IMG/VR virus record: IMGVR_UViG_3300044724_004793
Coordinates: 46,871 to 110,870 of that record
Origin: a virus
DNA length: 64,000 nucleotides
Strand: one strand, 5' to 3'
Shown here: one piece after another, positions 35,659 to 49,054 of the stretch
How positions within the stretch are numbered: the stretch's first letter is position 1
How the letters are laid out: the number at the start of each line of letters is the position of its first letter
Position numbers and translations under genes: made by a program
Notes under the pieces: generated by a model
What the model saw: only the letters and a program-made list of their open reading frames with translations
Told to the model about the DNA's origin: nothing
The model's database searches: none

Positions 35659-35686
35659 TAGACTACCCTGGTATCTGTGCTAATAT
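35659..35686 (+). promoter_or_regulatory. Early promoter TAGACT-16-TAATAT (extended TGTGC)
   Basis: Shares GTATCTGTGCTA with the divergent promoter. Confidence 0.7.
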
Positions 35687-35716
35687 GAAGTATAAGTTGA
35701 AATTGAGGAGAAAACG

Positions 35717-36001
35717 ATGATTAGTGTAATGGAAAACGTTAAAGCAGACATCAGCAAAATGTCCAACGAGCAGTTGAATGAGGTTGCCGCAAGCATTAAC
35801 ATGCGCCGCCAGCGTTTAACCAAGCAGGCTATCCGTAGCGTTATTCCTGGTGATATTGTCAGCTTTGAGACCCGTAACGGCCAGGTAACTGGTAAAGTGC
35901 GCAAGGTCAACCGCAAGACTGTCACAGTTGGTGAATCAAACAGCATCCGCAGCTGGAGGGTACCAGCTAATATGCTCACTAAATTGGGCATTGGGGGTTA
36001 A
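35717..36001 (+). CDS. Hypothetical early protein (SH3-like beta barrel)
   Basis: GAGGAG RBS; GDIVSF...GKVRKVNRKTVTV...WRVP. Confidence 0.6.
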   Translation: MISVMENVKADISKMSNEQLNEVAASINMRRQRLTKQAIRSVIPGDIVSFETRNGQVTGKVRKVNRKTVTVGESNSIRSWRVPANMLTKLGIGG

Positions 36002-37327: not shown

Positions 37328-37389
37328 AGCAATAAGGAAAGAAACTATTCGCTGTTGCGGCCTAACATCGGGAATAATTTTAGAAACGG

Positions 37390-37417
37390 TTGACTAATAC
37401 TAGACATGTGCTAATAT
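37390..37417 (+). promoter_or_regulatory. Early promoter TTGACT-16-TAATAT (extended TGTGC)
   Basis: Motif read directly. Confidence 0.7.
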
Positions 37418-37454
37418 GAATTATAAGTTAAACATTGTTGAGGAGCAAAAAAAT

Positions 37455-38504
37455 ATGGAATACGTTCTTATCAAGTCAGGCACATATCAGAAACTGCAAA
37501 TTGCAGACAAGGTATTTCCTGTTGTTAAACAGTTTAAGACAGGTGCTCGTGGATCATACATTACTGTAGACGGCGCCACACTAGGCACCGATTATGCCCG
37601 GCCTGTTCGCATCAAATGTGCTGCTGATGACATTGTTGCTGTAGAGCAGGATGCATTTGATCGTCAGCTTGGCGCACATAATGTCAACCAGGATATCAAG
37701 GTAGCAGGTAAGAAGGAGTATACTGCTGAAGATGATGAGAAGCGCATGGCGGAGATTGAAGAGCGTTTTGAAATCCTAAACGAAATGACAGGTGCTCTTA
37801 AGAGCGGCGACATCCGTGCGTTAATTGTTACAGGCCCCCCAGGCGTTGGCAAGAGTTACGGTGTTACTCAGACTCTTGAAGAGCAGAGCATCTTTGAGGA
37901 CGTTAGTAGCAAGCGTCGCAAGTTTGAAGTTGTTAAGGGCGCAATGACTGCTCTGGGCTTGTATGCCAAGCTATATGAATTCAGCGACAAGGGCAGCGTC
38001 ATTGTGTTTGATGACTGTGATAGTGTTTTGTTGGACGACTTGGCACTGAACATTCTCAAGGCTGCACTGGATTCAGGTAAGAAGCGTAAGATCTTCTGGA
38101 ACGCAGATTCATCTAAGTTACGCAATGAGGGTATTCCTGATAGCTTTGAATTTAAAGGTACTGCTTGCTTCATTACAAACATTAAATTTGAGAATGTTCG
38201 TAGCAAGCGATTGCAGGATCACTTGGAAGCACTTAGCAGTCGTTGTCACTATCTAGATCTTACGCTAGATACAATGCGTGACAAGTACCTGCGTATCAAA
38301 CAGATTGCACGTACTGGTAAACTCTGGGGCGACGATTACGGGTTTAACAAAGAAGAAGAACAGGAAATTCTTGAATTTATGTATGACAACCGTACCAAGT
38401 TACGTGAGATGAGCTTGCGTATGGCACTAAAGATTGCGGATCTTAAAAAGATCTCAGAAAAGTGGCGTTCACTTGCAGAAAGTACTTGCATGCGGCGGGC
38501 GTAA
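37455..38504 (+). CDS. AAA+ ATPase
   Basis: GPPGVGKS, IVFDDCD, FITN, ALSSR; GAGGAG RBS. Confidence 0.85.
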   Translation: MEYVLIKSGTYQKLQIADKVFPVVKQFKTGARGSYITVDGATLGTDYARPVRIKCAADDIVAVEQDAFDRQLGAHNVNQDIKVAGKKEYTAEDDEKRMAEIEERFEILNEMTGALKSGDIRALIVTGPPGVGKSYGVTQTLEEQSIFEDVSSKRRKFEVVKGAMTALGLYAKLYEFSDKGSVIVFDDCDSVLLDDLALNILKAALDSGKKRKIFWNADSSKLRNEGIPDSFEFKGTACFITNIKFENVRSKRLQDHLEALSSRCHYLDLTLDTMRDKYLRIKQIARTGKLWGDDYGFNKEEEQEILEFMYDNRTKLREMSLRMALKIADLKKISEKWRSLAESTCMRRA

Positions 38505-38514
38505 GTAGTATAAT
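38486..38514 (+). promoter_or_regulatory. sigma70-like promoter TTGCAT-17-TATAAT for the candidate sRNA
   Basis: Read directly; no ORF between it and the terminator. Confidence 0.6.
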
Positions 38515-38519
38515 TAAGT

Positions 38520-38608
38520 TATAGGTTTAGTGTCACACTCCTCTCCTCCTCCAGATACTAAATCTTAGGCAGGGTGTTTACATTAAGTAGACACCCTGCC
38601 ACCCTTTT
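38520..38608 (+). ncRNA. Candidate small RNA with anti-Shine-Dalgarno-like loop
   Basis: 12-bp stem 38523-38534/38554-38565 around loop ACACTCCTCTCCTCCTCCA, then 14-bp hairpin 38568-38600 and ACCCTTTT. Confidence 0.55.
38568..38608 (+). terminator. Terminator-like hairpin
   Basis: GGCAGGGTGTTTAC-attaa-GTAGACACCCTGCC followed by ACCCTTTT. Confidence 0.7.
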
Positions 38609-38623
38609 GTGTATACTAATATT

Positions 38624-39244
38624 ATGAAAATAGCGGTAGGCGATAGTTTTACATATGGAGAAGAGCTAGCTGACAGAACTCAGGCCTGGCCCAGTCTACT
38701 AGGCTACGATAACCATGGCATGCAGGGTGCTAGTAATGAATATATTTTCCGTAAGGCCGCAGAACTAGCGCCTGATGCTGACAACATGATTGTCGCCTGG
38801 AGTGATAGTGGAAGATATGAACTTTATACACATAATAAAGTTAATGTCGCACAAGGATATTTTAAACACCAAGGCATAATACAAGTTAATCCATCATGGA
38901 TCAAACTTAACAGTTGGTTTAAAGACTTATATGCCAAATATACAGACGAACATCATCAGTTTTTAAAAACTGTACTGTACATGGTTGCTCTTCAAGATGT
39001 GTTAGCAGCCAATCAGGTAGATTACTATTATTGTAGTGCGTTTGGAAACCAAGAAATGCTTGTTAAATATGCAGACGATCCAGTTTTAAACCCCTGGATA
39101 GGTAGATTAAATACTGATAGATTCATAGGCTTTCCTAAATATGGATTAGTAGAATGGGCATACGGAACACCGCAAGGGCCTAATGGACACCCATTGGAAC
39201 TAGGACACAGAAAGATAGCAGATGAACTTTTTAAATATATCTGA
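38624..39244 (+). CDS. SGNH-like protein
   Basis: VGDSFTYG, NHGMQGASN, AWSDSGR, GHPLELGH; TATACT 6 nt upstream of ATG. Confidence 0.6.
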   Translation: MKIAVGDSFTYGEELADRTQAWPSLLGYDNHGMQGASNEYIFRKAAELAPDADNMIVAWSDSGRYELYTHNKVNVAQGYFKHQGIIQVNPSWIKLNSWFKDLYAKYTDEHHQFLKTVLYMVALQDVLAANQVDYYYCSAFGNQEMLVKYADDPVLNPWIGRLNTDRFIGFPKYGLVEWAYGTPQGPNGHPLELGHRKIADELFKYI

Positions 39245-43062: not shown

Positions 43063-43563
43063 ATGAGAATATTAACATTAGAAGACACAGCATTTGAGAT
43101 GAACGAGCTACCTGAAGAGATCGATGATTTAAGGTTTGCTATATTAGATAATTCAGATCCTGTTAACCCCGATTATTTCTTTATTCCATTAATCTTTCTT
43201 GAGAGTTTCAACAGTCCTGCACTTGTACTAGACGTAGCAGGGCATCAGATTAAACTGCCAGTTGATTGGAAAATCCTAATTGGTGAGAAAGAAATTGGTG
43301 ATTTGGAAATGATCAATCTTAGTAGCCTTAACGATAGAGGATTTTTTGCGTTTAGTTTTAATCCATTAAGCAGCTACAAAGCAGACTACTTGCCAGTTAA
43401 TATTATAGATCTATATAGTGATGTCAAATGGTATTTTCCCAAACTTAAACAAGGACAGATGTTAGCCATTCCCATTGAAACGGGTGATAAGCCAATGTGT
43501 ATCTACTGTGCTAAAGAGATCAATCGCCAAACTGAAATTGTGGATATCACAAAGGCCTGGTAA
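43063..43563 (+). CDS. Hypothetical protein (replication cluster)
   Basis: ORF track; lies between uvsW and the clamp-loader-like gene. Confidence 0.6.
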   Translation: MRILTLEDTAFEMNELPEEIDDLRFAILDNSDPVNPDYFFIPLIFLESFNSPALVLDVAGHQIKLPVDWKILIGEKEIGDLEMINLSSLNDRGFFAFSFNPLSSYKADYLPVNIIDLYSDVKWYFPKLKQGQMLAIPIETGDKPMCIYCAKEINRQTEIVDITKAW

Positions 43564-46496: not shown

Positions 46497-46921
46497 AGAT
46501 TTTAATATTTGGACTACCTGGTAGTGGTAAAAGCACACTAGCAAAACCTTTTGCCGAACTCATAGGCGGAGTATGGATTAATGCTGATCGCGTAAGATCT
46601 CATTACGATGATTGGGATTTTACACCAGAAGGACGCATGCGTCAAGCACAGCGTATGAAACATTTGGCAGACGGAGTTGTAATGGCAGGCAAGATTGCAG
46701 TTGCAGACTTTGTGTGTCCTACGGAAGCGGCTCGTCTTGAGTTTAATCCAGACTACACAGTTTGGATGAATACAATTAATGAGGGTAGATTCGAAGATAC
46801 CAATGCAATGTTTGAACAGCCCCCAACATGCGATTACGTAGTAAGCAAATGGTTTACTGATACTCATGCTCAACTAATGGAAGTTGTCAAAAAATATATG
46901 GATAGGAATACATTACGATGA
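46493..46921 (+). CDS. Adenylylsulfate kinase-like P-loop kinase
   Basis: GLPGSGKSTLA, NADRVR, DFT.EGR.RQ, DFVCP, FEQP. Confidence 0.7.
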   Translation: MKILIFGLPGSGKSTLAKPFAELIGGVWINADRVRSHYDDWDFTPEGRMRQAQRMKHLADGVVMAGKIAVADFVCPTEAARLEFNPDYTVWMNTINEGRFEDTNAMFEQPPTCDYVVSKWFTDTHAQLMEVVKKYMDRNTLR

Positions 46922-48277: not shown

Positions 48278-48295
48278 TTTTCGATAAATACATAT

Positions 48296-49054
48296 ATGAC
48301 TGCTATTACAACATACTTATACAAACAAAATCATAAGGTTGTGATTGTTGATTCAGGAGTTAATAATACAATGAGCATGTTTTACACACCAAACATCAAA
48401 ATATTCCGCGGAATTAACAACGATATACGATGTAATTTTGTGAACAGAGATCAGAAGAAGACTAGTTTAACAGACAAAACTGTGGTTTTTATTATGATTG
48501 ATAAAGAAAACAGTACCACATATCTGGAAAGAACTGCTACTATCCTGGATGCACCTGCGGGTATTGCTGAAGTTAAGATTTTAGACAGCGATTTATTTGA
48601 TTTAGATGCAAAATATTATACATACGCATTTAAAGTAACTGACGGAGAAGGTAATATACAGATTGGTTATAGTGATGATAACTATGGTGCCAATGGCACA
48701 ATAGAACTAGTAGAAGGTGTATACCCAACTTTTAAAGCAAGTACCATTGAAGATTTTGGCGGCGGAAGCGTTGGATCAACTATTACACTAGATCCCTACA
48801 TCAATCGTAACATTGCTCAACACACTGCACAGGTATACTTTGGTAGTGCATTTACAGGCACACTAACAATTGAAGGCAGTCTTAGTCCTAGTCAGAGCGC
48901 ACTATCAAACAACGAATTTGTAACTATTAGCACACAATCATATTCAGCTCAGGAAGACCCGGTTATGGTAAACTGGAATGGTATATACAGTGCAGTCCGG
49001 TTCAAACGCACCACAACAACAGGAACCCTAAGCAAAGTACTATATAGGCCCTAA
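48296..49054 (+). CDS. Probable structural (baseplate/Ig-like) protein
   Basis: TAAATA 5 nt before ATG; beta-rich; FTGTLTIEGS...VRF. Confidence 0.5.
   Translation: MTAITTYLYKQNHKVVIVDSGVNNTMSMFYTPNIKIFRGINNDIRCNFVNRDQKKTSLTDKTVVFIMIDKENSTTYLERTATILDAPAGIAEVKILDSDLFDLDAKYYTYAFKVTDGEGNIQIGYSDDNYGANGTIELVEGVYPTFKASTIEDFGGGSVGSTITLDPYINRNIAQHTAQVYFGSAFTGTLTIEGSLSPSQSALSNNEFVTISTQSYSAQEDPVMVNWNGIYSAVRFKRTTTTGTLSKVLYRP

Follow-up and report, generated by a model that had tools for sequence, protein, structure and literature searches.

A conserved two-hairpin RNA with an anti-Shine-Dalgarno loop behind an ATPase gene of T4-related aquatic phages, a putative regulator of early genes

Introduction

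In Staphylococcus aureus, the icaR messenger RNA (mRNA) carries in its 3' untranslated region (3'UTR) an anti-Shine-Dalgarno (anti-SD) motif that pairs with the Shine-Dalgarno (SD) sequence of the same mRNA, blocks initiation and makes a substrate for RNase III, acting in cis or in trans (PMC3868564). In this work, we describe an element of comparable placement in a stretch of viral DNA of 64,000 nucleotides (positions 46,871 to 110,870 of the IMG/VR virus record IMGVR_UViG_3300044724_004793), hereafter the window. The element consists of two hairpins on the + strand, at 38523-38565 and 38568-38600, which follow a P-loop ATPase gene (37455..38504, + strand) and, as in icaR, match the SD region of the gene that they follow. 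Both in the window and in its relatives, the 3'UTR was found to hold an anti-SD sequence that complements the SD of its own gene, and changes on one side are matched by changes on the other at the level of the family, the lineage of the window having lost the extension beyond the SD core. Unlike icaR, the element is phage-encoded, and hundreds of phage contigs have it together with partner sequences that co-vary. The clade of the window also differs from icaR in displaying a long loop of repeated C/U units, which matches other early genes as well and may be transcribed from a promoter of its own.

Anti-SD loops are also known from small RNAs (sRNAs) of bacteria. The cuckoo, alpha-r14 or CcsR1-4 sRNAs of Alphaproteobacteria have two to four adjacent hairpins, each with CCUCCUCCC (PMC4615179). 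Our element is like them in that variable stems present a C/U-rich anti-SD loop, of which CCUCCUCC in the window shares eight of nine bases with CCUCCUCCC. Unlike in the cuckoo RNAs, the motif occurs in one hairpin only, the other being a terminator whose loop is AUUAA in the window and GAAA in relatives; the window's element does not contain the exact 9-mer, reading CCUCCUCCA there, and relatives carry loops of the CUCUCUCC type. A first reading of the window, made from the sequence only, had likened the RNA to this type, but both the defining architecture and the Rfam models failed to support membership in the family, and the resemblance is limited to loop chemistry and proposed mode of action. 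In Firmicutes, sRNAs with C-rich loops (RNAIII, RsaE/RoxS type) use unpaired loops to seed fast pairing with the G-rich ribosome-binding sites of several targets (PMC4615179, PMC3868564). Whereas those RNAs are host-encoded and multi-domain, with UCCC motifs, the present element closes a phage gene at its 3' end and has just one loop of C and U, a long one.

In phage T4, the RegB endoribonuclease and the RegA repressor shut off early genes post-transcriptionally through initiation regions containing GGAG. They are functional analogues of the element but are proteins, whereas the effector proposed here is an RNA. Some sRNAs derived from 3'UTRs, such as DapZ and MicL, have an internal promoter, start at the end of a coding region and share their terminator with the upstream mRNA; they regulate unrelated genes, unlike the present case, in which the best-supported conserved target is the parent gene. 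To our knowledge, few regulatory RNAs from virulent phages have been described, and almost none with a defined target.

Structure and Conservation of the RNA

Hairpin 1 has a 12-bp stem with two G-U pairs, formed by the 5' arm AGGTTTAGTGTC (38523-38534) and the 3' arm at 38554-38565. Its 19-nt loop (ACACTCCTCTCCTCCTCCA, 38535-38553) is made of C and U only, reads ACACUCCUCUCCUCCUCCA and constitutes an open anti-SD sequence. Hairpin 2 has 14 bp with one U-G pair and the loop ATTAA, and is followed by ACCCTTTTG (ACCCUUUUG to 38609). The terminator scan lists it (14 pairs, eight of them G-C, tail ACCCTTTTGT), and with its G+C-rich stem-loop and subsequent U-tract it has the make-up of an intrinsic terminator, predicted to end the transcript of the ATPase gene or of a separate sRNA. 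RNAfold returned the same two hairpins that can be read directly from the letters, with -38.2 kcal/mol vs. -18.0 +/- 3.0 for 200 shuffled sequences (z-score -6.84), none of which equaled the native value. On these structural points, including the terminator-like second hairpin, the sequence-only reading was correct. CTCCTCC is not enriched in the window (five found, 3.5 expected), so the signal lies in structure and conservation rather than in motif counts.

Other readings of the segment were considered and dropped. The region 38505-38623 contains no ATG and no open reading frame separate from the frame of the downstream gene. Scans for transfer RNA and transfer-messenger RNA found none, and interpretations as a tRNA-like element or a riboswitch had no support from Rfam or ARAGORN. 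The same lack of support applies to an origin or R-loop; moreover, the RNA strand is rich in pyrimidines, a composition that disfavours stable R-loops.

The conservation of the element was followed through its neighbour. A search of IMG/VR with the ATPase protein gave 60 loci (individual ones are cited below by L numbers), and in about 35 of them a hairpin with a rewritten stem stands right after the stop codon, its 17-28-nt loop still made of C and U only, and is followed by a second hairpin. This two-hairpin design is represented by 28 distinct sequences among the 60 loci. An unfitted MAFFT alignment of these 28 sequences, analyzed with RNAalifold, recovered hairpin 2 with compensatory changes in 11 of 13 pairs. 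After realignment of 31 distinct sequences with a covariance model, R1, 23 of 26 pairs were altered on both sides (11/12 in hairpin 1 and 12/14 in hairpin 2), and 89.9% of the cells were paired, vs. 36-44% when the partners were slid; none of 500 shuffles reached this value. The covariation of the stems around a conserved C/U loop, which had been named as a check, is therefore present. Stem pairs include 80 G-U/U-G vs. nine A-C/C-A, which identifies the RNA of the + strand as the folded strand.

With R1, viral and metagenome loci outside this set yielded 12 additional copies. In all, about 40 related contigs of viral or metagenome origin have two hairpins of this design downstream of the ATPase gene. 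Searches of whole records gave one copy per record, and no copy in two large records of a clade that has no hairpin 1. At the Rfam gathering score, no family matched the element in a search of the whole window; a cmscan of 38350-38750 with E values up to 10 gave only spurious matches to microRNA and hepatitis C virus families, and seven related loci had no match with E up to 0.1. No description of this RNA family was found in the literature searched. The element is a real, conserved, structured RNA of the + strand that is not catalogued in Rfam.

Some relatives carry a second RNA of two hairpins, here called type B, between the ATPase gene and the main RNA (L021:2185-2277, L042:3778-3866, L043:866-963, L096, and L100). 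Its loop is CCCUCUCUCUCUUCUUC, and its second hairpin is G-rich and followed by CUCACCC instead of a U-tract. Type B is absent from the window.

Co-variation of the Loop with the ATPase Initiation Region

The longest reading frame of the ATPase gene begins with ATG 37416, which is probably the wrong start. We place the true start at ATG 37455 because an M-x-Y-V-L-I-K N-terminus begins there in all relatives and the SD sequence is positioned accordingly. The leader and initiation region of the ATPase mRNA, the proposed target, span 37424..37457 (+ strand) and comprise a TAAGTT leader, which is common to relatives, the SD sequence GAGGAG (37440-37445) and the ATG. In the window, GAGGAG is complementary to CUCCUC of the loop.

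The SD region of the ATPase gene varies by clade, and the loop varies along with it. The initiation region GGAGGAGCAA occurs with the loop UUGCUCCUCC in L002-4 and L009, and GAGGAGCAAG with CUUGCUCCUC in L006-8. In L015, L017, L022, L026, and L027, GGAGAGAG(A) is accompanied by (U)CUCUCUCC, and in L013, GGAGAGAG by CUCUCUCC. A further pair that co-varies outside the SD core is GGAGAGAGA/UCUCUCUCC. Overall, relatives have perfect complements of 7-12 nt to their own ATPase initiation region; among the viral loci, only L031-L041 and L046-L053 are without one. The clade devoid of hairpin 1 still has such a complement, but in linear form and located at the stop codon (12 nt in L023 and 9 nt in L028). 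In the outgroup L055, two 8-mers within a 27-nt loop complement the ATPase gene of the same locus collinearly, one at the SD (GAGUGAGA) and the other at the start-codon region (GCAGACAG), and a third segment of the same loop matches the ribosome sites of two more early genes.

In a matrix of 12 representatives, cognate pairings exceeded shuffled ones in match length (p = 0.004) and duplex energy (p = 0.001), values that ignore ancestry and a signal that comes chiefly from two or three blocks. An independent set was obtained with an ATPase profile, which collected 80 metagenome loci with ATPases of 50-83% identity, from a search that reported ~480 metagenome relatives; in 76 of them, the 120 nt that follow the stop codon were checked against the 27 nt around the start codon. 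A perfect complement of at least 8 nt, nearly always spanning the SD, was present in 32 of the 76 cognate pairs, vs. 9.3% of the non-cognate ones, and none of 20000 permutations reached the cognate sum. At least 12 different pairs of partner sequences occur among these loci, for example GAGGATCAC/GTGATCCTC, AACGGAGTA/TACTCCGTT, AGGAGCTAGA/TCTAGCTCCT, CGAGGGCA/TGCCCTCG, GGAGCCAAC/GTTGGCTCC, and GGAGCGAG/CTCGCTCC. In the distant metagenome relatives, the anti-site is found either single-stranded right after the stop codon or within a hairpin loop.

In the ATPase tree, built with FastTree, the group without the hairpin is nested among groups that bear it. From this position, the preferred reading is that an anti-ribosome-site element was present earlier in the ATPase 3'UTR and that the C/U-loop hairpin of the window derives from it by elaboration.

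In the homologue from Mosigvirus, a T4-like coliphage, no complement was found between the initiation region and the 3'UTR. Pseudomonas phage PA5oct has no C/U hairpin at its homologue and only an 8-nt match of uncertain meaning: downstream of gp126 (L090; NC_071039.1, 248735-249933), the 3' arm of the terminator, AUGCUACU, is complementary to AGUAGCAU of the same gene, located between SD and AUG, a match that may be due to chance.

Other Early Genes as Likely Targets

The ATPase gene belongs to a small class of genes with a common early design, that is, a TTGAC/TAGAC -35 box, a TGcTAATAT -10 box, a TAAGTT(G/A)AA leader, UUGAGGAG, and ATG (window 35659-35719 and 37390-37457; record position 35689-35749). 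Exactly three genes in the 110.9-kb record combine the early leader with GAGGAG (AGTT...GAGGAG...ATG). Besides the ATPase gene, with a 6-bp match to the loop, these are the gene with ATG 35717 (GAGGAGA, 7 bp) and one at record position 35747 (GAGGAGU, 7 bp). The former is the likely second target in the window (35659..35719, + strand); it has TAGACT, 16 nt, TGcTAATAT, the leader TAAGTTGAAATT, and the SD GAGGAGA (35705-35711), a perfect 7-nt complement to UCUCCUC of the loop. The same class of early genes, with SD boxes specific to each clade, is present in relatives.

Among the relatives, 11 viral loci have other early genes whose ribosome sites match the cognate loop by 8-10 nt, such as AGTTGAAATT-GAGGAGCAAG-ATG in L006 and L009, GAGGAGAGA in L015, L021, and L027, and GGGAGAGAGU in L013. 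Other complements of at least 8 nt are few in the viral loci of ~7 kb, and most of them coincide with the ribosome sites of small early genes that also have this leader. These matches, together with L013, in which the other early sites fit the loop better than the ATPase site does, favour an action in trans on a small early regulon. Pairing in cis within the ATPase mRNA is also possible. The comparison with relatives thus supports the earlier proposal of targets among the phage's own early genes, including the sites at 37440 and 35705.

Promoters around the Element and the Next Gene

The ATPase gene is preceded by an early promoter of the sigma70 type (37390..37417, + strand), with TTGACT, a 16-nt spacer, and TGcTAATAT, which is listed by the promoter scan. 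Upstream of the gene, GGTTGAC(A)-16/17-TGnTATTAT (GGTTGACA, 16-17 nt, TGnTATTAT) is present in nearly all related loci.

A candidate promoter for a separate RNA lies at 38486..38514 (+ strand) and comprises TTGCAT (38486-38491), within the coding end of the ATPase gene, and TATAAT (38509-38514), with a predicted start at ~38521. It had been described as near-consensus, which holds for the perfect -10 box and the 17-nt spacer but not for the -35 box, with three of six positions of TTGACA. Because of this box, the site is not listed by the promoter scan. A TAnnnT box is retained 6-16 nt ahead of hairpin 1 in nine of 11 relatives of clade I, which makes a separate RNA of ~85-90 nt, transcribed from the TATAAT at 38509, plausible in the clade of the window.

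The next gene (ATG 38624) has a promoter that overlaps hairpin 2 (38588..38626, + strand; TAGACA at 38588-38593, 18 nt, TATACT at 38612-38617, 6 nt, ATG), also listed by the scan, and the arrangement TAGAC(A/T)-17/18-TGnTATAAT-6/7-ATG is kept in relatives. Its -35 box, TAGACA, sits in the 3' arm of hairpin 2, and this overlap accounts for the sequence conservation at the top of the hairpin. With a -10 box only 6 nt before the ATG, the message of this gene would be leaderless, in agreement with the earlier proposal of leaderless phage genes. Several more genes of the record have TATAAT 5-7 nt before their ATG.

Directly before hairpin 1, some relatives carry AAAAATT(T)GACGG (L015:4050-4066, L017:1840-1856, L021:2300-2360, L027:4195-4270, and L042:3878-3894), with tandem copies in L021 and L027. 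Such a motif may serve as a phage-specific promoter or bind a protein; it was not found in the intergenic regions of the window.

A Proposed Mechanism and Its Alternatives

Based on these data, we consider it rather probable that the element is an anti-ribosome-site riboregulator, borne by a 3'UTR or separately transcribed, that represses early genes of the phage. The phages that carry it are a group of T4-related aquatic viruses, and in them it is placed at the 3' end of an early gene for a P-loop ATPase. Early transcription from 37390 would yield an ATPase mRNA that ends at hairpin 2 and has the element as its 3'UTR, and in the clade of the window the element would probably also be made as the separate RNA starting at ~38521. 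Hairpin 1 would keep the purine-free loop open. In cis or in trans, this loop would pair with the ATPase mRNA at its SD region, and also with two or more further early mRNAs that have the TAAGTT...UUGAGGAG leader in common with it. Such pairing would hide the ribosome-binding site and hinder binding of the 30S subunit, lowering translation, and it may create a substrate for RNase III. Hairpin 2 would terminate the transcript and insulate the promoter of the next gene, which would escape repression because its message is leaderless. The outcome would be a delayed negative feedback on early genes, that is, an RNA-based early shut-off. Pairing and repression in vivo, the choice between cis and trans action, and the transcript ends are what we infer from the comparison of sequences.

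Several points weigh against this explanation. An RNA rich in C and U always complements SD-like sequences, and what carries the argument is therefore the match of the flanking bases in relatives; the permutation tests ignore shared ancestry. In the window itself, the match is confined to the SD core, with only 6 bp for the ATPase gene and 7 bp for the two other early genes (~-10.5 kcal/mol), energies no better than those of many random sites of the record; this lineage has lost the UUGC extension of the loop that its sisters have, although the target still has GCAA. Target prediction by duplex energy over the 110.9-kb record gave no outstanding match, and the early-gene sites were not among the best. 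The flanks of the intermolecular duplexes, with eight G-U vs. nine A-C, do not discriminate pairing of RNA from a repeat in DNA. As to the transcript, the -35 box of the candidate sRNA promoter is weak, the U-tract behind hairpin 2 is short (4 U) and begins 4 nt past the stem, and many relatives have no space for a promoter before the element, which in them is a plain 3'UTR of the ATPase mRNA. Finally, a C/U loop of such length and repetition may also be bound by a protein.

The sequence-only reading had gone further and proposed an RNA that mimics the 3' end of 16S ribosomal RNA and blocks SD-dependent translation. In the version of this idea weighed here, a global anti-SD sRNA acting in trans soaks up strong SD sites, chiefly those of host mRNAs, and brings about translational takeover while leaderless phage genes escape. 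The loop of the window, with three overlapping CUCC/CCUCC units (clade-II loops hold more), matches only the generic GAGGAG core, and this, the perfect -10 box ahead of the hairpin and the apparent leaderless state of the next gene and several others would all suit a global blocker. However, the element of relatives follows gene-specific bases beside the SD and even the start codon, and distant relatives have no CCUCC repeat at all (e.g., UGCCCUCG, GUGAUCCUC, and UACUCCGUU). Moreover, SD-like motifs precede ~40-50% of the genes of the record, vs. 10-14% of control positions, so that a global blocker would hit the phage too. We therefore regard global mimicry and host takeover as unlikely. What stands of the earlier interpretation is a conserved RNA with an anti-SD loop and targets among the phage's own early genes.

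Proteins such as S1, Rho, and Hfq bind pyrimidine-rich RNA, and the loop could be a docking site or decoy for one of them (Rho via YC dinucleotides) or for a protein that binds the 16S tail, such as Era, serving titration or recruitment. With 17-28 nt of C and U only, the loop exceeds in length and repetitiveness what a single pairing of 6-10 nt requires, and the type B RNA shows that some relatives have a second C/U loop. A decoy nevertheless leaves unexplained why the loop tracks the flanks of the neighbour's ribosome site and why the anti-sites of distant relatives are not made of pyrimidines only, and the sequence points to no named partner; we find this explanation quite improbable.

The two hairpins might instead be plain furniture of the 3' end, a stabilizing hairpin and a terminator that shield the ATPase mRNA and keep the following promoter insulated, with a loop that has no target. 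Hairpin 2 does score as a terminator, the next promoter has its -35 box within it, relatives L031-L041 have a simple terminator only at this place, and the record holds no outstanding target. An unconstrained loop, however, would not remain free of purines over 17-28 nt while both stems were rewritten, and nothing in this view predicts co-variation with an upstream ribosome site, which makes it very unlikely. Least credible of all is a role in DNA, with short inverted repeats in the SD region and just past the stop codon of the ATPase gene serving recombination or cassette exchange: the complement does form an inverted repeat that brackets one gene, and the duplex-flank counts do not favour RNA, but one arm is always centred on the SD, the marine clade shows the other arm in the loop of a hairpin with many G-U stem pairs possible on the + strand only, and the same box recurs at the ribosome sites of other genes.

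If repression of early genes by an anti-ribosome-site RNA is the correct explanation, it extends to phages a rare bacterial mechanism, the icaR type, in which a 3'UTR acts upon a 5'UTR. It would also be a testable case of RNA-based control of early genes, with a target that can be read from co-variation alone across many uncultured phages. To find more such regulators in metagenomes, a simple rule would be to inspect two places for an anti-ribosome-site motif, namely the bases directly behind a stop codon and the loop of the first 3' hairpin. An Rfam family could be started from the covariance model and alignments of this work. A bolder view, which we hold to be doubtful, is that the element is dedicated to switching off early genes as a class, the RNA equivalent of RegB/RegA in T4, and co-evolves with the shared leader and SD box. 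The loop of the marine clade would then be multivalent, holding several messages and maybe host mRNAs with strong SD sites, and the RNA alone would drive the switch from early to middle expression in T4-related giant aquatic phages.

The Phage and Other Features of the Window

The virus record that contains the window is 110,870 bp long and ~31% complete according to CheckV. It encodes replication genes of the T4 type, and the nearest relatives of its terminase and ATPase are found in Pseudomonas phage PA5oct, Agrobacterium phage Atu_ph07, and Sinorhizobium phage Phosso (~40-52% identity); a blastn search with the region found no match to cultured phages at the DNA level. The ATPase belongs to phrog_1250, a group of unknown function, has weak AAA_16/AAA matches, and has homologues with ~40% identity in PA5oct and ~33% in T4-like phages.

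Elsewhere in the window, positions 1786-1860 match the freshwater-2 RNA (RF02980) with 53.3 bits, above the Rfam gathering threshold of 49.9. In addition, a motif read as ATAAATACT, akin to the T4 late promoter TATAAATA, stands ahead of several genes, at record positions ~37380-37405 and 43245-43271, outside the window, and at 48280-48296 of the window, which is consistent with late transcription of the T4 type.

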